Assembly: GCA_964460855.1 (NCBI GenBank)
Contig: CAYWQH010000001.1
Span: 123,868 to 187,867, forward strand
Length of the DNA stretch: 64,000 nt
Origin: an uncultured Candidatus Saccharibacteria bacterium
GTDB lineage: Bacteria; Patescibacteriota; Saccharimonadia; Saccharimonadales; UBA10212
Reading direction: 5' to 3'
Under the pieces are notes generated by a model. The model was not told where the DNA came from, made no database searches, and saw nothing but the letters and a program-made list of their open reading frames with translations. Positions 8,276 to 50,718 of this stretch are shown in pieces. Both the position numbers and the translations under genes were made by a program. The first letter of the stretch is position 1. The number at the start of each line of letters is the position of its first letter.

Positions 8276-8986
8276 TCATACGTAAAGCACCTCTTCCAGG
8301 TTCTTGCCGGCAGTTTCGACCAGGCTCATCACTTGGCGGTAACTTTGCCGGGTGGGGCCCAGCACTCCAATGTAACTTTGGTCGGAATACGGGCTGCGGA
8401 ACCGGCTGATTATTAAACTACAACCGGAGTTGCGTCCAATGGGGTTTTCGCTGCCGATATAAACGCTGAGCGGTTCGTTGGGGGCGGCTTCGCGCAGCCA
8501 CGGCTCTAAATTGTCCAGGAGCCTCGCAACTTCCTGGACCTGGCCGGGATGAATGAATTCCGGCTGGCCGAACAAGTTGGACAAGCCGCTCATATATAAC
8601 TGGTTGCCGATAGTCGCCATGCCCAAGTTGTGGGTCAGTTCGACTAAGGTATCAACCGCATTGCGGATGGTCCGTTCCGGCATACCGCCATCGGCGACCC
8701 GGGTTTGCAGGGCTTTTTCGGCCCTAGGCACGTTAAGCACTTTTTGGGCTTTGCCGGACGACATATTATTAACGTAAAACCGGTAGCCTTTATCGGTAGG
8801 GATACGGCCGGCACTGGTGTGCGGCTGGCTGATAAAGCCGCCGCGTTCCAACTCGGCCATTTCGGCGCGGACGGTGGCGCTGCTGACATCAAAAACTTTA
8901 GCCAGCAAACTGCTGCCTACCGGGCTGGCGACTTCGGCGTATTGCTCGACGATCGCCTCTAGAATTTTGGCCTGTCGGTCTGTCAT
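8276..8986 (-). CDS. hrcA: Heat-inducible transcription repressor HrcA (short form, 236 aa)
   Basis: N-terminal wHTH (RQAKILEAIVEQYAEVASPVGSSLLA...SSATVRAEMAELE..GFI.QPHTSAGRIPT.KGYRFYV). CIRCE operators lie upstream. Confidence 0.9.
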   Translation of the reverse strand: MTDRQAKILEAIVEQYAEVASPVGSSLLAKVFDVSSATVRAEMAELERGGFISQPHTSAGRIPTDKGYRFYVNNMSSGKAQKVLNVPRAEKALQTRVADGGMPERTIRNAVDTLVELTHNLGMATIGNQLYMSGLSNLFGQPEFIHPGQVQEVARLLDNLEPWLREAAPNEPLSVYIGSENPIGRNSGCSLIISRFRSPYSDQSYIGVLGPTRQSYRQVMSLVETAGKNLEEVLYV

Positions 8987-8997
8987 TAACTACCTAT

Positions 8998-9024
8998 TTA
9001 GCACTCGCTAGTGCTTAATGCTAG
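8998..9024 (-). promoter_or_regulatory. CIRCE operator 1 (cTAGCAtTa-N9-GAGTGCTAA on the minus strand)
   Basis: The right half matches the CIRCE consensus GAGTGCTAA perfectly and the left half matches 6/9. It sits at the predicted +1 / 5' UTR of hrcA. Confidence 0.7.
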
Positions 9025-9052
9025 TTTACCGAAATTGGCACTCTCATGTCAA
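9023..9052 (-). promoter_or_regulatory. hrcA operon promoter (TTGACA-N18-TAAACT)
   Basis: A perfect -35 TTGACA (9047-9052) lies inside the spacer of CIRCE 2. The -10 TAAACT (9023-9028) abuts CIRCE 1. Confidence 0.55.
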
Positions 9053-9061
9053 CAGTGCCAG
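9035..9061 (-). promoter_or_regulatory. CIRCE operator 2, variant (CTGGCACTG-N9-GAGTGCCAA on the minus strand)
   Basis: Inverted repeat with the canonical 9-nt spacer. Relative to TTAGCACTC-N9-GAGTGCTAA the halves match 6/9 and 8/9. Confidence 0.6.
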
Positions 9062-9064
9062 TCG

Positions 9065-9253
9065 CCACATACTCACCCAAGACATTCGAAAACATTATTG
9101 AATTTGCTGTATGTTTATTAGCCGCGCAGCGACAATCCCACTTTAGTGGGACTCCCACCCTTTAATTAAGATTGTGCGGGAGCGAGTCGCTGCTTTATTC
9201 GGCGGCCAATTAGCAAATTCATCAGTTTTCCCGAGTCTTGTGCGAGTATGTGG
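9065..9253. repeat. Long imperfect hairpin element E1 (189 nt; about 44-nt arms plus branched GC-rich core)
   Basis: The arms 9065-9108 and 9212-9253 pair (ccacatactc/gagtatgtgg, caagac/gtcttg, gaaaac/gttttc, gaatttgct/agcaaattc). Inner helices are gccgc/gcggc, gcagcgac/gtcgctgc and cccac/gtggg. The arms resemble those of 18764-18938. Confidence 0.6.
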
Positions 9254-9397
9254 TTCCATCTATATAACTAAAAGTTCACTATTTTCACACTCCGCTTTAC
9301 CGCATAGATTTTAAGCTAACCGGCAGTAAAGTTCATAAACGCAAGCCGAAAATTGTAGCGACCATCGAGCAAATTTTATTACTGATAATAATGGGTG

Positions 9398-9433
9398 CGG
9401 GCTGGGAGGGAGCTCGCGCTCACCTCCCGCCCG
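9398..9433 (-). terminator. GC-rich hairpin terminator of the 179-aa cassette gene
   Basis: cgggc(t)gggagg pairs with cctcccgcccg, with an inner gagc/gctc helix. It lies 7 nt after the TGA stop and is followed by an A/T-rich tract. Confidence 0.55.
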
Positions 9434-9439
9434 TTGTCG

Positions 9440-9979
9440 TCAGTTTCGCTCGCTGGTGGACTGGCGCGAAGCCACCAGCCGGTCCATGGCCTCCTCGTGG
9501 TTCTTGGCCATGCCCGTCTCAGTTGCAAGACGGATGTGGTTGATGCGAGCAGCGTCTTGCTGCTGCAGCAGGAACTCCGTTTCGTCGGCGCGCGTGGGAA
9601 ATTCCTTGGAATTCTCCATCAGCCAAGCCTCAAGCTCTTCGTCCAGAGTGTCCCGCCCAGCATCGAGTATGGCCACACTGTGGTACACGCCATGACCGGC
9701 GATGACCAGCACCCTGATGCCGCGCAGGGCGGCGTACAGGATGCGGGCCCGCCGCATTGGCAGACCCGGAATGTCCGGATCAACCGCCCACTCGGCATAG
9801 CGCAAGAAGTTGTCGAGGCGGTCAGTTGGACGGACGCCCAGAGCCTCGATCCCGTTGAAGAACCTCGTGAGGGAATCGATATAGCGCCGGCAGTCCCTGA
9901 TGAAGTTCTTCGGCTCTACTCTGTAGAGCTGCAGGACTTCCAGGTCCCGGTGATCCTCGAACTGTGCCTTATTGGTCAA
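9440..9979 (-). CDS. Hypothetical protein (179 aa), compositionally foreign GC3-rich cassette gene
   Basis: TTG start 6 nt after AAGGAG. All Lys codons are AAG and GAG/CTG/TTC/CGC dominate, whereas dnaK is AAA/GAA-rich. No motif recognised. Confidence 0.65.
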   Translation of the reverse strand: MTNKAQFEDHRDLEVLQLYRVEPKNFIRDCRRYIDSLTRFFNGIEALGVRPTDRLDNFLRYAEWAVDPDIPGLPMRRARILYAALRGIRVLVIAGHGVYHSVAILDAGRDTLDEELEAWLMENSKEFPTRADETEFLLQQQDAARINHIRLATETGMAKNHEEAMDRLVASRQSTSERN

Positions 9980-10019
9980 CGAACGCTCCTTGTTCAGAAG
10001 GGTTGAAAACGACTAATAT

Positions 10020-10047
10020 ATTATACTATATTTAGCATTATTTACAA
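10020..10047 (-). promoter_or_regulatory. Promoter of the 179-aa cassette gene (TTGTAA-N16-TATAAT)
   Basis: Read on the minus strand directly after the gmk stop. An AT-rich block abuts the GC-rich ORF. Confidence 0.5.
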
Positions 10048-15835: not shown

Positions 15836-15906
15836 ACAATAAAAAGCTTTTGGTTAAGCATGCTAGCTTAATTATAAAGACGCCACCAAGCTTTTGGTAG
15901 CCAATT

Positions 15907-16662
15907 CTAGGCGGCTTGCTGTTCGACCGGTTTTATCGAGATGACGTGGTCGACGCCAGGTTCGGTCCCATTTTTGTGGCGTTCTTCTGCCTTTTTAGCG
16001 AAGTTCATCCGGGAATTATTTTCTAACTGCTCAATATTTTTATAAACGTAAACGGCCCCTCCAAGTACCAGCGCGCCAACCGCCGCGCCAACGGTTCCGC
16101 GGGCTAATGAGTTGTCTACAACTTCAGAGCCAGTTTCTGTGCTAAAGCCAAGCGCTTCGCCAAAAAATACGCCAATACCTAAAGCTGCGATTTGCAGCCG
16201 TCCCATTAATCTCTTATATTTTTCACGTCCGATTGCTTCGTTAATTCCTTGGCGCAACCGCATATTCATATTGCCTTCGATAATATCGCTAAGTTCCATT
16301 AAGCTTTTATCAGGATTACTAGTGTGAAGCGGCGCCAGCACTTCAACAACATTGCCGGAAACTAGCGCAGGGCCGTTGTCGCGGGCGACAACATCCGGGC
16401 TTTCAATTAATGCCGGCAGGCTGGGAACCGGATTTACAAAAACTTCTTTGATCCTGTCGCTAGGCCTAATTGCTTCGTTGGCATTATAAACAGCAACTGC
16501 GAACTTTTCGTTATCAATCACAATTTTATGTTCTTCGTCGTTTATAAATAAGTCTGAATGCGGAAAATCTAAACTGGCCGTGGGCGCTAAAATTGGGGTT
16601 GTTGAGCGCTTTACAACCTTGTCCTTAATCTCTTGAAACTCGGTAAATCCTTCTGCTGACAT
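15907..16662 (-). CDS. Hypothetical protein with C-terminal TM helices
   Basis: The start was moved to the ATG at 16662 (SD GAAGAGGG). This is supported by the upstream promoter TTGAAT-N17-TATACT at 16690-16718. Confidence 0.5.
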   Translation of the reverse strand: MSAEGFTEFQEIKDKVVKRSTTPILAPTASLDFPHSDLFINDEEHKIVIDNEKFAVAVYNANEAIRPSDRIKEVFVNPVPSLPALIESPDVVARDNGPALVSGNVVEVLAPLHTSNPDKSLMELSDIIEGNMNMRLRQGINEAIGREKYKRLMGRLQIAALGIGVFFGEALGFSTETGSEVVDNSLARGTVGAAVGALVLGGAVYVYKNIEQLENNSRMNFAKKAEERHKNGTEPGVDHVISIKPVEQQAA

Positions 16663-16689
16663 AGTACCCTCTTCAATATTAATGGAATT

Positions 16690-16718
16690 AGTATAGTCCT
16701 CTGAAGTGCCCGATTCAA
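16690..16718 (-). promoter_or_regulatory. Promoter TTGAAT-N17-TATACT for 15907..16662
   Basis: Hexamers read on the minus strand with 17-nt spacing. Confidence 0.45.
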
Positions 16719-16735
16719 TCAATTGTGATTCTGAA

Positions 16736-16764
16736 TTGCCGCTTATGCACCGAGCTGTTATCAT
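16736..16764 (+). promoter_or_regulatory. Extended -10 promoter (TTGCCG-N17-TGtTATCAT) of the 85-aa cassette gene
   Basis: Hexamers, 17-nt spacing and the TG motif were read directly. Confidence 0.45.
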
Positions 16765-16817
16765 AAAAACTTCGCATTTTTTGCGTAGCGTTTGGCAAGA
16801 CAAACAACTGAAAGGGG

Positions 16818-17075
16818 GTGGCCGCCCTGGCTACCTACATTATTTCAGTCGGTGAAGAAGTGACCCTGGAATTCCACATCCACGACAACGACACGGCGAT
16901 CGACCATGTCACAGAGTTGGCGTCACTGTGGGAAAAACGCACTGAAACCTGGGGCAAGCTGTTCGCCGGCCGGAAGAAGTACCCGTTGATGCTGCTTCGC
17001 CGGGAAAGAGACCGGTCCTTCGAGCATGTGATCACATGCACGGTAAACCTCTCTGGCCCCGGCGACTACAACTAG
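16818..17075 (+). CDS. Hypothetical small protein (85 aa), GC3-rich cassette gene
   Basis: GTG start directly after the purine tract GAAAGGGG. Codon usage is GC3-biased. The ORF is bracketed by the 15-bp inverted repeat 16787-16801 / 17118-17132. Confidence 0.5.
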   Translation: MAALATYIISVGEEVTLEFHIHDNDTAIDHVTELASLWEKRTETWGKLFAGRKKYPLMLLRRERDRSFEHVITCTVNLSGPGDYN

Positions 17076-17081
17076 CGGCTT

Positions 17082-17137
17082 TGCGGGGCCGGGTCTTCGA
17101 ACCCGGCCCCGCAGCGCGTCTTGCCAAACGCTTTTTT
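17082..17137 (+). terminator. Tandem terminators: a 13-bp GC hairpin, then a short hairpin plus T6
   Basis: tgcggggccgggt-cttcga-acccggccccgca (17082-17113), followed by gcgt...acgc and TTTTTT (17132-17137). Confidence 0.65.
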
Positions 17138-17152
17138 CATTGGTCCATAAGA

Positions 17153-17181
17153 TTGCTACTTTATACTACTTATGTTATAAT
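17153..17181 (+). promoter_or_regulatory. Extended -10 promoter TTGCTA-N17-TGtTATAAT of the 76-aa cassette gene
   Basis: Near-consensus hexamers. 28/32 nt are identical to the promoter at 17508-17539. Confidence 0.6.
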
Positions 17182-17213
17182 ATTTTATTAGGCTACCCCA
17201 AAGGAGACGTCTG

Positions 17214-17444
17214 ATGGTAATGCAAACCTATCAGATCGACGACGGCCCGCTGTTCCAGCGGCCCAGCGAGTTTCTCGCCAAGGAGGTCTTCCGCCTCGCG
17301 GTGGAACACCGGCGCGACGAACTCAGCCAACTGCCGGACCCGCCGCGGACAACCCTGCTCACCCTCTACAGCTTCCACGAGCGTGGGCGCACGCAGATCG
17401 ACGACTACAAGATCGTCCTGCCAGGTGAGCCGGTAAAGGCGTAG
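17214..17444 (+). CDS. Hypothetical small protein (76 aa), GC3-rich cassette gene
   Basis: AAGGAG lies 7 nt before the ATG. About 64 of 76 codons end in G/C by hand inspection, and all Lys codons are AAG. Confidence 0.65.
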   Translation: MVMQTYQIDDGPLFQRPSEFLAKEVFRLAVEHRRDELSQLPDPPRTTLLTLYSFHERGRTQIDDYKIVLPGEPVKA

Positions 17445-17451
17445 CAATCCG

Positions 17452-17490
17452 GGGCCCCCTCCGCCACTTGGCGGACGGGGCCCTTCCCAT
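17452..17490 (+). terminator. 14-bp GC hairpin terminator
   Basis: gggccccctccgcc-actt-ggcggacggggccc, followed by ttcccattttt. Confidence 0.6.
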
Positions 17491-17508
17491 TTTTATGTGT
17501 CTATAGTA

Positions 17509-17537
17509 TTGCTATTTAATACTTCTTATGTTATAAT
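17509..17537 (+). promoter_or_regulatory. Extended -10 promoter TTGCTA-N17-TGtTATAAT of the 128-aa cassette gene
   Basis: Same module as 17153-17181. Confidence 0.6.
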
Positions 17538-17654
17538 AACTCTGATTTCACTTCGGTGGGGTCGTATTTTGACAGGGTTAAGCTTCTGCCGCGTCCAATG
17601 AGCGCATCTTAATAGATAAGGTGCACTGGTTGGACACGACAGAAAGGATCTACT

Positions 17655-18041
17655 ATGTCCAACGCTCAAGGCCAGCCCGTGACCTATTACGTGCAGGTCT
17701 ACGAGTTCTGCGAGCACCTGCACATGTCAGTAGTGCTGAAGGAAGCTCGGGGATTCGATTCCCTGCCCTTCCGCGACTACTTGAAGTGCGTCGTACCGGG
17801 TACTACGCTCAGCCATCATTTCACGGACCATGGCTTCCTCTCGATCGACATCGAGTGGCGCCAGGGGCTGAAGCTATCTGTTCGCGCGATCGAGTCAGTA
17901 CAAGGCGCGATCGACGACTTCTTCCGTGACAACGGCGGCGTGCGAGACCATCGCGCCGAGCGCATCGAAGCGCTGGAAGCGGCGATGCGGCCTCAGGAGC
18001 TGTGGCTCGTCGAGTGGCCGGAGTACGATCCGACCGTCTGA
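17655..18041 (+). CDS. Hypothetical protein (128 aa), GC3-rich cassette gene
   Basis: SD GAAAGGA lies 7 nt before the ATG. GC3-rich codons, with all Lys as AAG. A leader of about 110 nt precedes it. Confidence 0.65.
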   Translation: MSNAQGQPVTYYVQVYEFCEHLHMSVVLKEARGFDSLPFRDYLKCVVPGTTLSHHFTDHGFLSIDIEWRQGLKLSVRAIESVQGAIDDFFRDNGGVRDHRAERIEALEAAMRPQELWLVEWPEYDPTV

Positions 18042-18047
18042 CGTATA

Positions 18048-18079
18048 CGGCCGCCGGCCCCTTTGGGGGCTGGCGGCCG
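18048..18079 (+). terminator. 14-bp GC hairpin terminator
   Basis: cggccgccggcccc-tttg-ggggctggcggccg, 7 nt after the TGA stop. Confidence 0.55.
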
Positions 18080-18135
18080 CGCCTCACTTAACCCTGCCAA
18101 TCACATTTGTTATAAATCTTTTTAAAAGGACAAGC

Positions 18136-18165
18136 TTGCTTAATCCTAACTGCCCTTTATATTAA
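18136..18165 (+). promoter_or_regulatory. Promoter TTGCTT-N16/18-TATATT/TATTAA of the 167-aa gene; a second TGtTATAAA box lies at 18108-18116
   Basis: Hexamers read directly. Confidence 0.4.
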
Positions 18166-18184
18166 TTTACATAAAGGAGCGTTT

Positions 18185-18688
18185 ATGGAACGAGGACAGC
18201 ATCCTGAATATACTTTCAGAAGACACGAACATTTTGAATTCAATGATAAAAAAGTAGATAAGAAAAAAAGAAATTCTATTCAAAAGGCCGCAACAAAGTC
18301 TCACGATGATTTAATGGCCTACCGTAGCCAACTAAAAGAAATTACAAAAGAGCTGGAGAAGCAACTTGAGCATCTCCAAGGCAAAACGATTTCAGTGAAT
18401 AGCACAAGAGCAGTTTTACGTTATGGCGGCAACTATCGGCTGCTTACGATCTCAACTGATACAGTTGGTTCCACCAATGGAGTTTTGCTTGATTTAGCTT
18501 TATTTAATACTGCAGAATTACACCATCCAGACGATGAGGGTAGCTTTGAAAACGTATTCGAAATAGTCATGCGAATTCATACCAATCCGGACATAACAAG
18601 ACATAATCCGAACAATCTAAGCGTAGTTTATGTCCCGATCGACGACATCCAAGGCCCAATTACGTTAGTTAAAGACGGTAGTAGCTAG
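18185..18688 (+). CDS. Hypothetical protein (167 aa), AT-rich cassette gene
   Basis: AAGGAG lies 5 nt before the ATG. Arg is encoded mostly by AGA and Lys by AAA. One 60-nt line (18301) counts 23/60 G+C. No motif recognised. Confidence 0.6.
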   Translation: MERGQHPEYTFRRHEHFEFNDKKVDKKKRNSIQKAATKSHDDLMAYRSQLKEITKELEKQLEHLQGKTISVNSTRAVLRYGGNYRLLTISTDTVGSTNGVLLDLALFNTAELHHPDDEGSFENVFEIVMRIHTNPDITRHNPNNLSVVYVPIDDIQGPITLVKDGSS

Positions 18689-18763
18689 TCTAGAAAAGTG
18701 AGTACTATTTATAACGAAACCACTGCGAAGCGAGCCCAAGTTGGCGTTTATCCAGTAAAGCGA

Positions 18764-18938
18764 AATACATAAGCACGCAAGACTCTGAAAAACTGAAGGA
18801 GTAAGGCTTGTAAGAAAGTAGTGAAGCGAGGACTGTTTGAGCCACTGCTTATATAAACTTCTGCGAGTTCCACAGCTTCCGATTTTCGCACAAGTTTTAC
18901 GACTATCATGTTTTTCAGCTCTTGCGGGATTAGGTATT
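18764..18938. repeat. Long imperfect hairpin element E2 (175 nt), related to 9065-9253
   Basis: The arms 18764-18811 and 18890-18938 pair (aatac/gtatt, cgcaaga/tcttgcg, ctgaaaaac/gtttttcag, cttgt/acaag). The 5' arm matches the E1 5' arm at 19/27 positions (acata..cac.c.aagac...gaaaac). Confidence 0.55.
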
Positions 18939-18943
18939 GAGCG

Positions 18944-21870: not shown

Positions 21871-21902
21871 AGTAGTCACAAAGTAACCAAATCTCTACCT
21901 TT

Positions 21903-21930
21903 AAAAAACTCCACGCAAGTGGAGTTTTTT
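21903..21930. terminator. Bidirectional intrinsic terminator
   Basis: AAAAAA-actccac-gcaa-gtggagt-TTTTTT. Confidence 0.8.
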
Positions 21931-21934
21931 ATTT

Positions 21935-43514: not shown

Positions 43515-43658
43515 TGCTAACAAAACCCGGTCCTCAAACCGCTCACGCGCGGATAGTGCCTGCCCTGAGCTGCACGACGAGTCTAGCATCTCCGGCAGGC
43601 ACTAAACCGGCTCCGCTAGGGTAAAGGGTAAGTTTTCGGCCCAGGTTTCGTTAGCATT
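43513..43658. repeat. Structured inverted-repeat element filling the convergent intergenic gap (146 nt)
   Basis: The 15-bp outer helix aatgctaacaaaacc/ggtttcgttagcatt abuts both stop codons. The inner perfect 10-bp helix is agtgcctgcc/ggcaggcact (43555-64/43594-603). Confidence 0.5.
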
Positions 43659-44956
43659 TAGCCTTTGGTTTGCCTATTTACATTTGCAGCACGCTTATTA
43701 ATAAATGAATCGCGGGACTGCTTATACTTAATCTCAGTTCCGAGGCGGTGCACATATTGGGCCAAGTTTTCCGGTTGCTTCGTTAAAACTTTTTTAGTGG
43801 AAGGTACCATAACATTTTTGCCGGTTTGGCGGTTAACTGTATGTTTGCAATCGACGCAGTGTAATATTCCTTTGTCGTATAAATTTTCTGGAAGGTCGAC
43901 TATGTTATTGCAGTTGGGGCAAGTGACGCATTTAAGCATGTCTTGTTTGGTGAAGTAACCTAATTTATCTGAGATTCTTTGGCCGCCCAGTACTGTATCG
44001 CAGCCAAAGAATTCGGTGCCGGCTTCCATAACGCCGGCGGCCGCGATCGATTCGGCCAGACTTTCCAAGTCCTGCCAGGTGCCGTCGAGTTTCCGCTTGT
44101 AACTCGAAACTATATCGCGGCGCAGCTGTTCACTGAGCCCCGGCCAATTTTCAGGCGGCTGGTACAGTGCTATAGAGTCTAAACCGCTCATCAGCGATTC
44201 CAATAATTCCGGGTGGCTGAGAACGAACCGGTAGCTGTCAGGCCCCTGCTTTGGTGCCAGGCGGTCGGCCAACTGGTAATCGGCAATGCCAAGGACTACC
44301 GGACTGTTTAAAATGTCGATGGTCGAGGCGTCTTGCGCCAGTGCGATATTAAATTCCGATTGGTAAGTCTGTGCTACGTCAGCGGCGCTGAGGCCGTCGA
44401 TGCTGCGCGAAAAAAGCCGCAGTCCGCCTTGGCCGTCGAATACGCTGACCCGCAAAAAACCGCGCCGCAGTTTTGGGTTCCGGCCTAAAAGTTTTAAATC
44501 GTCGTCGCTGAACAAATCAGAACCGCACAGAGAAAACGTTACTAAAGTTGCTTCTATGCCTTGCTCTAAAATACGTCTTTGGAGCAATGATTCCTCATAT
44601 TCTGCTTCGGCTACTCTTATATATGCACTTAAATTAGGGTTTTGGGCGGCGCGTTCGCGGGCATATGCTACACCGTTGCTATGTAATTCCAGCCAATCTA
44701 CCGGCAAGCCTTGTTCGTCGTGGCAAACCATTTGGTCGCCGGCCAGCCAAAAATCCAAATCGGTCCGCACCTGGCCGTCCATCATTTCACTGAGGTACAG
44801 GCTTTCCTGGCGAAAAACATATTCCCGGGCCCGGCTGTCGCTCAAACCTTCGTGCAATTCACGCAAAGTCCGCGCCGAATCGGCCTGGCGTTTTAAATTA
44901 AGGTTTTCAGTTACCGTTTCCAAAAAAATACCCCTGCTTTTAAGCAAGGGCAACAA
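43658..44956 (-). CDS. Hypothetical protein with a C-terminal zinc ribbon (CxxC...CxxC)
   Basis: CVTCPNCNNIVDLPENLYDKGILHCVDCKH. The start is uncertain: TTG in the track, with an alternative TTG at METVTEN preceded by GGGG. Confidence 0.55.
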   Translation of the reverse strand: MLPLLKSRGIFLETVTENLNLKRQADSARTLRELHEGLSDSRAREYVFRQESLYLSEMMDGQVRTDLDFWLAGDQMVCHDEQGLPVDWLELHSNGVAYARERAAQNPNLSAYIRVAEAEYEESLLQRRILEQGIEATLVTFSLCGSDLFSDDDLKLLGRNPKLRRGFLRVSVFDGQGGLRLFSRSIDGLSAADVAQTYQSEFNIALAQDASTIDILNSPVVLGIADYQLADRLAPKQGPDSYRFVLSHPELLESLMSGLDSIALYQPPENWPGLSEQLRRDIVSSYKRKLDGTWQDLESLAESIAAAGVMEAGTEFFGCDTVLGGQRISDKLGYFTKQDMLKCVTCPNCNNIVDLPENLYDKGILHCVDCKHTVNRQTGKNVMVPSTKKVLTKQPENLAQYVHRLGTEIKYKQSRDSFINKRAANVNRQTKG

Positions 44957-45097
44957 TAACTGGCGGCTCTTGCTCGAGAGACTTTACAACTGTTTCGGAC
45001 TTTAACCGTTGCGGCACAGCGTTAGAATTTCACTAACTTCCAGTTTGGTTTATTAAAGTGCTTTCATGATAGCACAAGCCATGACAAAATATTGGTT

Positions 45098-46192
45098 ATG
45101 TCAAATGCCGAGGTATCAACAGCCGAGCACCCGCTCCAGCAGCAAGTTAATGAATTGTACATGCCTTGGAGCAAGGAATTCGGCGCTAATGGCAAGAGTT
45201 TTAAAGCTTTGCCTTATGAACCCGGCAAATATCCTGGCCAGAGAGTTGAGGAATTTATTTCCCGGGCCCGCCCGTACGAAGCTATTACGCCAGAAGTATT
45301 CCGGGAAATCCAGCAATTTACTTTAGGGCATTCCCTGGGCTATACCGCTTTAACAGCATATTGGCGCGGCGGCCAATTCGCCGAAGCGTTTAATCCGTAC
45401 GCCGAAGAAGTACATGAGTTGCTTAAAGCTAAAAAATCCGTTGGCGTGTTTACTATGCACTGCGAATATAAAGATACGATACTAGCCGGTGGCGCGTTGA
45501 ATTTGGCATTAAGCAAGCACCCTGGTTTGCCAGCTTATCCTTTAGACGTTTACAGTTGGACATTTATGAATAAAGCTATGGCTTATACCGGCGTTATGCG
45601 CAGCAACATTCCACGATATTTGTTGGCCCGCCGGGAACCTAAAGCAATTGCAAGCAAACTGTCGCACGCTACTAACATCGTATGGGTATCGCCGGATACG
45701 CCCAGCGCTGACCGGTTCAATATACCTGAAGAAATAAGCAATTATTTAAATATTAATGCCATGCGCGATTTTAAAACGGCTACCCCAGGCCATGGTGTGC
45801 TTTTGGCTGCGGCGCTGCACGGCAGCCAAACGAAACTGAGAGCTGACGATGATACATATGTACAACCCGAGGTACGTCCAGGCTCATTCGGCCTAATGCG
45901 GCAAGTTGATGCGGTACTCCCAGTAGTAATAGTTAAACAAGGAAAATCAAGGATTGCCGATTGGGCCGTTGGCGAACTAATGCCTAATAGCAAAAATAAG
46001 AAAGACAGCTTACCGCAAGTTAACTCCATTAACACCGAGCTGGCCAAGATGCTAAACGAATTAACGGGTAGGGACGTAGAATACACCGAGTTAGTATCAG
46101 ATGGAGACAATATTGTTCGGCGCATCGCGCAAACTGCTCTAAAAGGCGCGATCATGCCAATTATGATCCAGCAACAAAAGCGAGCTACTTAA
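45098..46192 (+). CDS. Hypothetical protein, possible HX4D acyltransferase-like
   Basis: 364 aa. FTMHCEYKDTIL contains an H-x4-D motif like PlsC/GPAT block I. This is weak, motif-only evidence. Confidence 0.5.
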   Translation: MSNAEVSTAEHPLQQQVNELYMPWSKEFGANGKSFKALPYEPGKYPGQRVEEFISRARPYEAITPEVFREIQQFTLGHSLGYTALTAYWRGGQFAEAFNPYAEEVHELLKAKKSVGVFTMHCEYKDTILAGGALNLALSKHPGLPAYPLDVYSWTFMNKAMAYTGVMRSNIPRYLLARREPKAIASKLSHATNIVWVSPDTPSADRFNIPEEISNYLNINAMRDFKTATPGHGVLLAAALHGSQTKLRADDDTYVQPEVRPGSFGLMRQVDAVLPVVIVKQGKSRIADWAVGELMPNSKNKKDSLPQVNSINTELAKMLNELTGRDVEYTELVSDGDNIVRRIAQTALKGAIMPIMIQQQKRAT

Positions 46193-50662: not shown

Positions 50663-50702
50663 AAAATAAAAAATACCCTGCCAGATTGCAGGGTATTTTT
50701 TA
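50663..50702. terminator. Bidirectional intrinsic terminator
   Basis: A-run, ataccctgc-cagatt-gcagggtat, T-run, located between convergent genes. Confidence 0.85.
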
Positions 50703-50718
50703 TATTGATTACCAATAA

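Follow-up and report, generated by a model that had tools for sequence, protein, structure and literature searches.

A lineage-specific islet of small orphan genes

Between the genes encoding MurJ and an ABC-2 permease, the 64-kb stretch of Candidatus Saccharibacteria DNA analyzed in this work (the window) carries a lineage-specific islet of 3.1 kb (positions 15836-18943). It comprises p251, the three small orphan genes c85, c76 and c128, which lie in a row, p167, and the hairpin element E2. The surroundings represent core chromosome, with genes for LepA, MurJ, an ABC transporter, HrcA and guanylate kinase. In the relative L011 the MurJ and ABC-2 genes are adjacent and the islet is absent, and the relatives found via MurJ, which are just 60-66% identical, all lack the entire islet. 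Third-position G+C of the islet cassettes amounts to 0.74-0.84, compared with 0.58-0.66 for host genes, and the GC hairpins of the cassettes are unlike the native terminators, which are built of an A-run, a stem and a T-run. The deviant composition and the non-native hairpins point to foreign DNA joined to host-like promoters, and we propose that c85 is a small, recently acquired orphan gene.

Each of the three genes has a promoter of the host type as well as a strong GC hairpin; all features of these cassettes given below lie on the plus strand. The predicted c85 promoter (consensus; TTGCCG-17 nt-TATCAT, 16736-16764) has a TG ahead of the -10 box (TGTTATCAT) and is placed back to back with the divergent promoter of p251 (16718-16690, minus strand). 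Extended -10 boxes of the TGTTATAAT type are found upstream of host genes too. As judged from the -10 box, transcription would start near 16771, and the predicted 5′ end of the transcript folds into a 4-bp stem-loop, CGCA UUUUU UGCG (16773-16785). A ribosome-binding-like sequence, AAGGGGG (within 16812-16836), lies immediately against the GTG start codon, with no nucleotide in between, and the start region is sequestered by a local hairpin of 8-9 bp (16816-16836). The 85-aa orphan ORF (16818-17075) shows coding-like codon periodicity, with G+C of 0.56/0.40/0.74 at the three codon positions. Its predicted product is hydrophilic (GRAVY -0.33, maximum 15-residue hydropathy 1.22) and has no membrane-like segment. 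The stop codon is followed by a 13-bp GC-rich hairpin (17082-17113; stem 85% G+C, loop 6) with no U-run directly behind it, and the unit has a single T-run at its end, TTTTTT (17133-17138). Given the poor initiation region, in which the ribosome-binding site directly adjoins the GTG codon and a hairpin encloses the start, and given that the gene calls on identical public contigs omit c85, the unit may be in decay and not finely tuned.

No true homologue of c85 was found, either by a word-indexed search or by a full HMMER search against 1.84 billion representatives; the sole match, a tandem zinc-finger-like repeat protein (P0002), was judged spurious. Searches with c128 and p251 likewise gave no homologues, and no relatives of p251 were found in the JGI metagenomes, a collection that apparently lacks this lineage. 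The cassette proteins matched no family in Pfam, PHROGs, PADLOC or NCBIfam, and no match for them came from the PDB sequence search, phage tblastn or IMG/VR scans. Structure prediction for c85 gave a pLDDT of 49, which is unusable, while the c128 model (pLDDT 60) had no fold match with a TM-score >0.4. No Rfam family was identified at or near the locus. A structured non-coding RNA in place of the ORF was considered and rejected on the grounds of the coding-like G+C by codon position and of ORF interiors that are not unusually structured.

The second unit, the c76 cassette (17153-17496), is composed of a promoter (TTGCTA-17-TATAAT, 17153-17181), an AAGGAG sequence (17201-17206), a 76-aa orphan ORF (17214-17444) and a GC hairpin (17451-17484), which has its own U-rich tail behind it. 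The c128 promoter (TTGCTA-17-TATAAT, 17509-17537) is located inside a 49-nt direct repeat that it has in common with the c76 promoter (82% identity). It is followed by a 5′-terminal UUCG hairpin (17544-17563) within a structured leader of 111 nt, a 128-aa orphan ORF (17655-18041) and a 14-bp GC hairpin with no U-run behind (18048-18079). A promoter-like site, TGTTATAAA (18108-18116), lies downstream of c128.

Hendrix and colleagues reportedly described phage “morons” as autonomous promoter-ORF-terminator units of deviant composition. In a similar manner, c85, c76, c128 and o179 are self-contained units, each of which combines a promoter and a strong hairpin of its own with a small ORF whose G+C deviates, and they are inserted between unrelated genes. 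The cassettes differ from morons in their core-chromosome context, which is not that of a prophage, and in having no matches in phage collections; the prophage moron reading was rejected on both counts.

A perfect inverted repeat around c85

The c85 cassette is bracketed by a perfect inverted repeat of 15 nt. The 5′ arm, AGCGTTTGGCAAGAC (16787-16801), begins about 16 nt past the inferred start site, in the predicted 5′ UTR and directly behind the 5′-terminal stem-loop. The 3′ arm, GTCTTGCCAAACGCT (17118-17132), is the exact reverse complement of AGCGTTTGGCAAGAC and immediately precedes the TTTTTT run. The gap of 316 nt between the arms holds the ribosome-binding site, the ORF and the GC hairpin. 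The predicted promoter lies upstream of both arms and the sole T-run downstream of them, just outside the right arm. The direct outer flanks are ...TTGCGT and TTTTTC.... The preliminary description had reported this repeat and its bracketing of the cassette, and both are real. The two arms are also the only matches to the 15-mer in the 64-kb window, even when two mismatches are allowed; no scattered copies exist there.

The same description had called the repeat very unlikely by chance, a statement that hinges on the null model. When the whole window is considered, a perfect inverted repeat of at least 15 nt with a gap of 50-1500 nt appears somewhere in 11.5% of dinucleotide shuffles. However, non-coding DNA makes up 8% of the window and both arms are located inside that fraction, and between neighbouring intergenic regions a repeat of at least 15 nt was obtained in 0 of 2000 shuffles. 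Compared with its own trailer, the c85 leader gave p<0.001, while cross-pairings of leaders with the trailers of other cassettes did not exceed 9 nt. The c85 repeat is the longest among all 71 intergenic pairs of the window, and the 87 intergenic pairs in six related Saccharibacteria loci reach a maximum of 11, below the 15 of c85.

A functionless coincidence, picked up in a 64-kb window that was combed exhaustively for oddities, would be in keeping with the whole-window frequency and with the supporting repeat around c128 (see below), which is within window-wide random expectation. The shuffles of non-coding DNA and the leader-trailer test speak against it, as does the placement of the arms, which sit precisely around the ribosome-binding site, ORF and hairpin, the right one directly ahead of the T-run. 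We consider such a coincidence very improbable.

The bracket around c128 consists of a 5′ arm, TTGACAGGGTTAAG (17569-17582), located in the leader just past the UUCG hairpin, and a 3′ arm, CTTAACCCTGCCAA (18087-18100), which overlaps the -35 region of the promoter-like site downstream. The arms match at 13 of 14 positions, with a pair probability of ~1 and p=0.003 for the cognate leader and trailer. The layout is the same as in c85, i.e. 5′-terminal hairpin, 5′ arm, ORF, U-less GC hairpin and 3′ arm. Since about 0.77 intergenic pairs with at least 10 perfect nt are expected by chance and the control loci reach 11, this second bracket is just suggestive at the window level. Its sequence is unrelated to that of the c85 arms, which argues against common transposon termini; a common structure without a common sequence is what selection on pairing predicts, and shared transposon ends do not. 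No inverted repeat was found between the leader and trailer of c76, the cassette whose GC hairpin carries a U-rich tail of its own.

Mobile-element and recombination readings

The arms of the c85 repeat had been likened to those of the hairpin elements E1 and E2. When the entire window was scanned by Smith-Waterman alignment, the c85 arm with its leader scored 25 against E2, and unrelated places scored 24-31, so the resemblance is background noise. E2 against E1 gave scores of 36 and 28, above noise; the two elements are alike, but the c85 arms do not resemble them. Pairs of the motif CAAGAC...GTCTTG no more than 400 nt apart number 3, versus 1.5 expected (p=0.2), and GCAAGAC is not enriched (9 versus 6.1). 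Furthermore, E1 and E2 are long hairpins paired over their full length, whereas in c85 only the 15-nt ends pair.

One of the two readings offered in the preliminary description placed the cassette inside an E-family hairpin or made it a cargo-carrying MITE. With its ~350 bp framed by a perfect inverted repeat of 15 bp, c85 does recall a MITE. It differs in carrying a full ORF, in having termini other than those of E1, E2 or c128, in the lack of a target-site duplication next to the arms and in the lack of a further copy in 64 kb, and the MITE reading is unsupported. The case calls for caution in general: short inverted repeats that bracket an ORF are not equivalent to transposon ends unless target-site duplications or extra copies accompany them.

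In a broader sense, the repeat could be a footprint of acquisition at the DNA level, i.e. a neutral relic or a mobility signal and not an RNA feature. A unit lacking a promoter (ribosome-binding site, ORF and GC hairpin) may have been inserted in the loop of a palindrome or terminator that the host already had, the arms may be the inverted-repeat ends of a non-autonomous element, or a template switch at the time of insertion may have copied the 15 nt in the opposite orientation. The whole of 15836-18943 is an insertion relative to L011, in which the ABC-2 gene abuts MurJ, and the cassettes, with their non-native third-position G+C and GC hairpins, have the appearance of foreign DNA on host-like promoters. 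The promoter is outside the arms and the ribosome-binding site inside, the 15-bp stem followed by TTTTTT would make a good terminator were the stem uninterrupted, and arms without a single mismatch are in line with a recent event. Set against this are the flanks TGCGT and TTTTT, which form no target-site duplication, the lack of a second arm copy in the window even with two mismatches, and arms that are unrelated to E1/E2 beyond noise and unrelated to those of c128. No transposase, integrase or recombinase is encoded among the neighbours scanned (8.2 to 22.7 kb). The implied state before insertion would also be odd, with a promoter followed by a terminator 22 nt later, and the left arm is without the A-run of native bidirectional terminators. 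An uninterrupted hairpin with these arms is absent from JGI metagenome contigs, which is a weak argument in view of the apparent lack of the lineage in that collection. Taken together, we regard a DNA-level origin as unlikely, although it deserves consideration.

Invertons typically have short inverted repeats that flank a few hundred bp, in an intergenic and promoter-proximal position. The c85 repeat shares this geometry, with a perfect 15-bp repeat, a few hundred bp in between and a promoter nearby, and the bracket around c128 would supply a second case. A site-specific recombinase would then flip the 316-bp segment between the arms and set c85 on (sense) or off (antisense), the off state placing the GC hairpin right behind the promoter. 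Yet the segment holds an ORF and no promoter-like site between 16802 and 17117, no recombinase gene occurs among the neighbours scanned (8.2 to 22.7 kb), and the arms of c85 and c128 differ in sequence, so that it is not obvious how a single recombinase could act on the two. All publicly available copies of the locus have the same sequence in this region (Logan SRR9179559, 60, 62 and 63, and the NCBI genome). In these five independent assemblies the segment has a single orientation and no contig break falls at the arms, although assemblies hide minority orientations. We find switching by inversion very improbable.

The contig breaks in the assemblies sit in 32-nt GC palindromes, and were rejected as evidence of rearrangement because they coincide with these GC-hairpin palindromes rather than with the arms. 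An integron attC site was likewise dismissed: by inspection, the 57 nt from the stop codon to the T-run form a simple perfect GC hairpin with no RYYYAAC...GTTRRRY pair. Each unit has its own promoter and no integrase is encoded among the neighbours scanned, so the cassettes were not assigned to integrons.

Predicted pairing of the c85 transcript ends

The second reading of the preliminary description, pairing of the mRNA ends, fits the anatomy of the locus best, as far as can be predicted. When the full-length c85 transcript was folded, the 15-bp stem was retained in both the minimum-energy and the centroid structures (z=-6.8). All 15 of its pairs are Watson-Crick, and its predicted pair probability is ~1.0 in the ensemble of the full-length RNA and 0.8-1.0 across three choices of transcript ends; the helix thus dominates the folds thermodynamically. 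The ORF interior folded alone is ordinary (z=-1.55), and the surplus structure therefore resides in the UTRs. In local folds both arms are essentially unpaired, and the 3′ arm is without a strong alternative partner, which leaves them available for pairing. A perfect Watson-Crick repeat would fit a DNA-level origin equally well.

We infer where the transcript begins and ends, that the helix forms in vivo and what it does; promoter, start site and 3′ end are consensus predictions. On this basis, the c85 mRNA would be a monocistronic RNA of ~365 nt that starts near 16771 at a host-type promoter and comprises, in order, the tiny stem-loop, the 5′ arm, the ribosome-binding site, the ORF of 85 codons, the U-less GC hairpin, the 3′ arm and U6. 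The newly made 3′ arm would pair with the still-free 5′ arm and close the whole message into a panhandle. Since TTTTTT is the only T-run of the unit, only this long-range stem would yield the stem-plus-U-tract geometry of an intrinsic terminator, which the GC hairpin alone does not give. Like the stem of such a terminator, the 3′ arm GTCTTGCCAAACGCT contains G+C and directly precedes TTTTTT; a compact loop is lacking, as the “loop” is 316 nt long and holds the whole ORF. A loop of this size is kinetically unfavourable for terminator action, and to our knowledge no split terminator of this sort has been documented.

The c85 feature is most likely a known kind of mRNA feature and not a new mobile element. 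More specifically, we tentatively suggest that its arms are the 5′-UTR and 3′-UTR halves of a long-range closing helix, which quite possibly protects the ends, completes the terminator, or both. With both RNA ends base-paired, the message would be protected against exonucleases acting at either end and against cleavage in the leader, as in the case of the hbs mRNA. Alternatively, RNase III could cut the 15-bp duplex and thereby trim read-through transcripts.

The hbs mRNA of B. subtilis has a 14-bp pairing between its 5′ and 3′ UTRs, is ~380 nt long and encodes a protein of 92 aa (Braun, Durand & Condon 2017, PMC5737220). Both hbs and, by prediction, c85 (~365 nt, 85 aa) are small monocistronic units with a structured leader and a UTR-UTR helix of 14-15 bp, and the role proposed for the helix is common to both: limiting the access of ribonucleases to the ends or leader. 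The hbs pairing, which overlaps an RNase Y site that has been mapped, was examined by mutation, whereas the c85 helix is predicted from sequence. A further difference is that the 3′ arm of c85 directly precedes a U-tract, which suggests a role in termination, and that c85 is an orphan gene of one uncultivated Saccharibacteria genome.

In the icaR mRNA of S. aureus, part of the 3′ UTR pairs with the message's own 5′ UTR (Ruiz de los Mozos et al. 2013, PMC3868564). Pairing within one mRNA is likewise predicted for c85. The icaR 3′ UTR covers the ribosome-binding site and stimulates cleavage by RNase III, whereas the 5′ arm of c85 ends 10 nt upstream of its ribosome-binding site, which is sequestered instead by the separate local hairpin. 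Complementary UTR segments of at least ~10 bp, favoured in the full-length RNA as in hbs and icaR, are thus predicted in c85.

Type I toxin mRNAs, such as those of hok/Sok and aapA1/IsoA1, are ~200-400 nt in length, have paired ends and are stable as full-length RNAs (PMC9841398, PMC5416894). They show the end-to-end closure of a short transcript that is predicted for c85, which is a functional analogy only: those loci encode hydrophobic peptides of less than ~60 aa together with an antisense RNA, while the c85 product is hydrophilic and has 85 aa. A type I toxin-antitoxin system was rejected for c85 on its length and hydrophilicity, and no antisense promoter-like site was found between 16802 and 17117.

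If formed in the cell, the helix would provide a clean, sequence-predicted case of 5′/3′-UTR pairing in the candidate phyla radiation (CPR), a large assemblage of uncultivated bacteria to which Saccharibacteria belong. We know of nothing on mRNA turnover or termination in the CPR. If the end-pairing reading is true, it would also illustrate how recently acquired orphan genes with U-less imported hairpins are fitted to a host that uses A-run/stem/T-run terminators. The wider weight is modest, as the mechanism has precedents, the proteins have no assigned function and there is one clear instance.

In a more far-reaching version, which we think improbable, self-contained orphan cassettes would form a class in Saccharibacteria, each unit consisting of a promoter of the host type, a small ORF of foreign origin and a GC hairpin that lacks a U-run. 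Either each mRNA would be closed as a cassette-specific panhandle that acts as a translation-coupled “split terminator”, or the brackets would mark an unknown mechanism of capture in host-hairpin loops. The efficiency of a “split terminator” would be set by the 5′ arm being free, e.g. not covered by an initiating ribosome. Termination, or read-through into the next cassette, would then be coupled to translation of the current one.

Orphan cassettes in a core chromosomal setting

The window belongs to a Candidatus Saccharibacteria (TM7) genome, and its surroundings are core chromosome, with genes for LepA, MurJ, an ABC-2 transporter, guanylate kinase and HrcA. Identical DNA is present in NCBI assembly GCA_964585885.1 and in Logan assemblies SRR9179559, 60, 62 and 63. 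In a related genome (L011, MurJ 66% identical) MurJ abuts the ABC-2 permease gene, while in the window 3.1 kb (15836-18943) lie between them. By this comparison, the interval is a lineage-specific islet. It contains p251 on the minus strand, c85, c76 and c128 on the plus strand (the 85-, 76- and 128-aa orphan ORFs of three successive cassettes), p167, and the hairpin element E2. Homologues were found for none of the islet proteins searched (c85, c128 and p251), and none of the five islet proteins had a protein-family match; the single HMMER match of c85, to a tandem-repeat protein, was dismissed as spurious. Three Logan contigs of the locus (L001, L004 and L005) end at window positions 16883, 17089-17091 and 18094, in or just past 32-nt GC palindromes, and such breaks in short-read contigs are probably a k=31 assembly artefact. 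The absence of c85 from protein databases is partly due to these breaks. In identical public contigs c85 is not called by gene callers, despite its coding-like codon-position G+C.

Coding periodicity is clear in c85, c76 and c128, their third-position G+C (0.74, 0.84 and 0.78) is raised against 0.58-0.66 in host genes, and the ORF interiors are not unusually structured (z from -0.7 to -1.6). They therefore look like real coding sequences, and were probably imported. In front of each lies a predicted promoter of host type whose extended -10 box (TGTTATAAT or TGTTATCAT) is also found before ordinary host genes, and behind each lies a GC hairpin of very high stability. With the corresponding hairpin of a fourth cassette, o179, they rank as the four strongest in the intergenic DNA of the window, and they are unlike the native terminators (A-run/short stem/T-run). 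Native bidirectional terminators of this palindromic type occur at 21902-21931 and 50666-50703 (e.g. ATAAAAAATACCCTGC-CAGATT-GCAGGGTATTTTTTAT); overall, canonical terminator-like sites show no excess over shuffled sequence (34 versus 30.8 in the first 20 kb). The cassettes make up an array, each a moron-like transcription unit complete in itself. Integron cassettes were rejected, since the units carry promoters of their own and inspection showed no attC core sites. The promoters of c76 (17134-17182) and c128 (17490-17538) form a 49-nt direct repeat (82% identical), a third, partial copy of which precedes p167 (18103-18116), so the inter-cassette spacers look duplicated, as if cassettes had been joined behind copies of one promoter module.

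The o179 cassette (9393-10047, minus strand) comprises a promoter (TTGTAA-16-TATAAT, 10047-10020, minus strand), an AAGGAG motif, a TTG-initiated 179-aa orphan ORF (9440-9979; codon-position G+C 0.65/0.40/0.77) and its very stable GC hairpin (9397-9434). No leader/trailer inverted repeat was found, and searches of Pfam, NCBIfam and phage collections, the only homology searches made for o179, gave no match. Within the ORF there is a GCAAGAC-N22-GTCTTGC hairpin (9525-9560).

The inverted repeat around c85

The perfect 15-bp inverted repeat noticed in the preliminary description is exact: the 5' arm (AGCGTTTGGCAAGAC, 16787-16801, plus strand) and the 3' arm (GTCTTGCCAAACGCT, 17118-17132, plus strand) are reverse complements separated by 316 nt. 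They enclose a ribosome-binding-like AAGGGGG, the GTG-initiated 85-codon ORF (16818-17075) and a perfect 13-bp GC hairpin (17082-17113), and TTTTTT (17133-17138) directly follows the right arm. The 64-kb window holds no further copy of the arms, even with up to two mismatches allowed.

The repeat had been described as very unlikely by chance. This is overstated at the scale of the window, where 11.5% of dinucleotide shuffles give a perfect inverted repeat of at least 15 nt with a gap of 50-1500 nt, but tests restricted to non-coding DNA support non-randomness. Both arms lie within the non-coding 8% of the window, repeats of at least 15 nt between neighbouring intergenic regions arose in 0 of 2000 shuffles, and the c85 leader compared with its own trailer gave p<0.001. 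The repeat is also the longest among the window's 71 intergenic pairs, and the maximum among 87 pairs from six related genomes was shorter (11). We accept it as real and non-random, and regard a chance origin as very improbable.

The arm had further been likened to those of the hairpin elements E1 and E2, which does not withstand comparison. Smith-Waterman alignment across the entire window gave the c85 arm with its leader a score of 25 against E2, within the 24-31 reached at unrelated places; E2 scored 42 against its own other arm and 36 and 28 against E1, exceeding that noise. BLAST of the c85 leader against E1/E2 found no match, CAAGAC/GTCTTG inverted pairs within 400 nt numbered three (1.5 expected, p=0.2), and GCAAGAC is not enriched in the window. 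The E-family or MITE interpretation is unsupported; the c85 unit has neither a target-site duplication nor other copies in the window, on which grounds a MITE was rejected.

The arms might instead be a DNA-level footprint of acquisition, left when the unit entered a host palindrome, formed by terminal inverted repeats, or produced by an inverted microduplication. In favour of this, the islet is inserted relative to L011, its cassettes are compositionally foreign and the c85 promoter lies outside the arms; however, besides the lack of a target-site duplication and of a second arm copy in the window, the arms are unrelated to those of E1/E2 and c128 and no mobility gene was found nearby, so we consider such a footprint unlikely. 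An inverton, whose geometry the repeat fits, is highly improbable: no promoter lies within the c85 segment, no recombinase was found nearby, and five assemblies show a single orientation, breaking solely at GC palindromes.

E1 (9063-9253) is a hairpin of about 190 nt, nearly all paired (-91 kcal/mol, z=-9.6), located just 3' of the o179 cassette and adjoining hrcA. E2 (18777-18925; about 150 nt, weaker, z=-2.1) is located just 3' of the c85-p167 array and adjoins the ABC-2 gene. Their outer stems share ACATA..C.CAAGAC.TC.G.AAAAC / GTTTT...GTCTTG...TATGT (scores 36 and 28, noise about 25). Neither matched an Rfam family; in this genome the two might represent a small family of hairpin repeats or structured RNAs.

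Predicted pairing of the c85 mRNA ends

The -10 box of c85 ends at 16764, so transcription is expected to start near 16771. The predicted RNA opens with a 4-bp stem-loop (16773-16785, plus strand), followed by the 5' arm, a 10-nt spacer, and the ribosome-binding site and GTG, both within a local hairpin. Towards the 3' end, the GC hairpin leads into GCGC and the 3' arm rather than into U's, and the sole U-tract is directly 3' of that arm. The divergent p251 promoter (16718-16690) is directed away, which places the c85 5' arm outside the p251 transcript. When the full predicted transcript is folded, the 15-bp helix is kept in the minimum-energy and centroid structures (z=-6.8), with pair probabilities of 0.8-1.0 for every choice of transcript ends. 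The arms are essentially unpaired in local folds and thus available for long-range pairing.

The analysis establishes the repeat, how non-random it is, where it sits and that it dominates the fold; the transcript and its effects are inferred. The best-supported reading, which we advance tentatively and which is the second of the two offered in the preliminary description, is that the c85 mRNA forms a helix between its 5' and 3' UTRs, and this is the most likely function of the repeat. The helix would close the message of about 365 nt into a panhandle, set a stem before the sole U-tract (supplying the terminator geometry missing from the imported GC hairpin) and shield both RNA ends from ribonucleases. 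In a variant, inseparable here from the panhandle, the duplex would be an RNase III processing site. A translation-sensitive split terminator, or cassette capture in hairpin loops by an undescribed mechanism, is jointly improbable. A compact intrinsic terminator was rejected because the loop measures 316 nt, and a type I toxin because the 85-aa protein is hydrophilic.

Pairing of 5' and 3' UTRs is already known in bacteria. In the Bacillus subtilis hbs mRNA (about 380 nt) a 14-bp 5'/3'-UTR interaction modulates leader cleavage by RNase Y (PMC5737220); further precedents are the icaR mRNA (PMC3868564) and the fold-back structures of type I toxin mRNAs (PMC9841398, PMC5416894). The closest documented case is hbs, with 14 bp in about 380 nt against a predicted 15 bp in about 365 nt for c85, a candidate member of the hbs/icaR type. 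c85 would add a case in an unstudied phylum, on an orphan cassette.

The c85 initiation region (16812-16836) is abnormal: no spacer separates AAGGGGG from GTG, and an 8-9-bp hairpin contains the start codon. Spacing to the ribosome-binding site would be normal for an in-frame CTG at 16827.

The c128 bracket and other elements

The c128 cassette repeats the order of parts seen in c85 with unrelated arm sequence. Its promoter is followed by a 5'-terminal UUCG hairpin (17544-17563), the 5' arm (TTGACAGGGTTAAG, 17569-17582), a structured leader, the ORF, a U-less GC hairpin (18048-18079) and the 3' arm (CTTAACCCTGCCAA, 18087-18100), all on the plus strand. The arms match at 13 of 14 positions with a pair probability of about 1 (leader against own trailer, p=0.003). 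Because about 0.77 intergenic pairs with at least 10 perfect nt are expected by chance window-wide, and control loci reach 11, this second instance is suggestive only. c76, in which a U-rich tail follows the hairpin, has no bracket. Across these three cassettes, the bracket is present where the hairpin is without a U-tract and absent where one exists, which fits an RNA-level role.

The 111-nt c128 leader (17544-17654) is strongly structured alone (z=-5.5), with the UUCG-capped 5' hairpin and a long one that partly covers the ribosome-binding site with its 3' side. The leader matched no Rfam family and may be regulatory.

CIRCE-like operators were found 5' of hrcA (8276-8986, minus strand) at 9036-9062 and 8999-9018. 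The operator TTGGCACTC-N9-CAGTGCCAG matches TTAGCACTC-N9-GAGTGCTAA at 14 of 18 positions and overlaps a promoter-like site (9052-9023, minus strand); a shorter palindrome, AGCACTCGCTAGTGCT, lies near it. These sites suggest HrcA autoregulation in this Saccharibacteria genome. An AdoCbl-II (cobalamin) riboswitch match (44981-45059, minus strand; 49.4 bits versus a gathering score of 36.5) lies between divergent ORFs at 43658-44956 (minus strand) and 45092-46192 (plus strand), on the upstream side of the minus-strand ORF.
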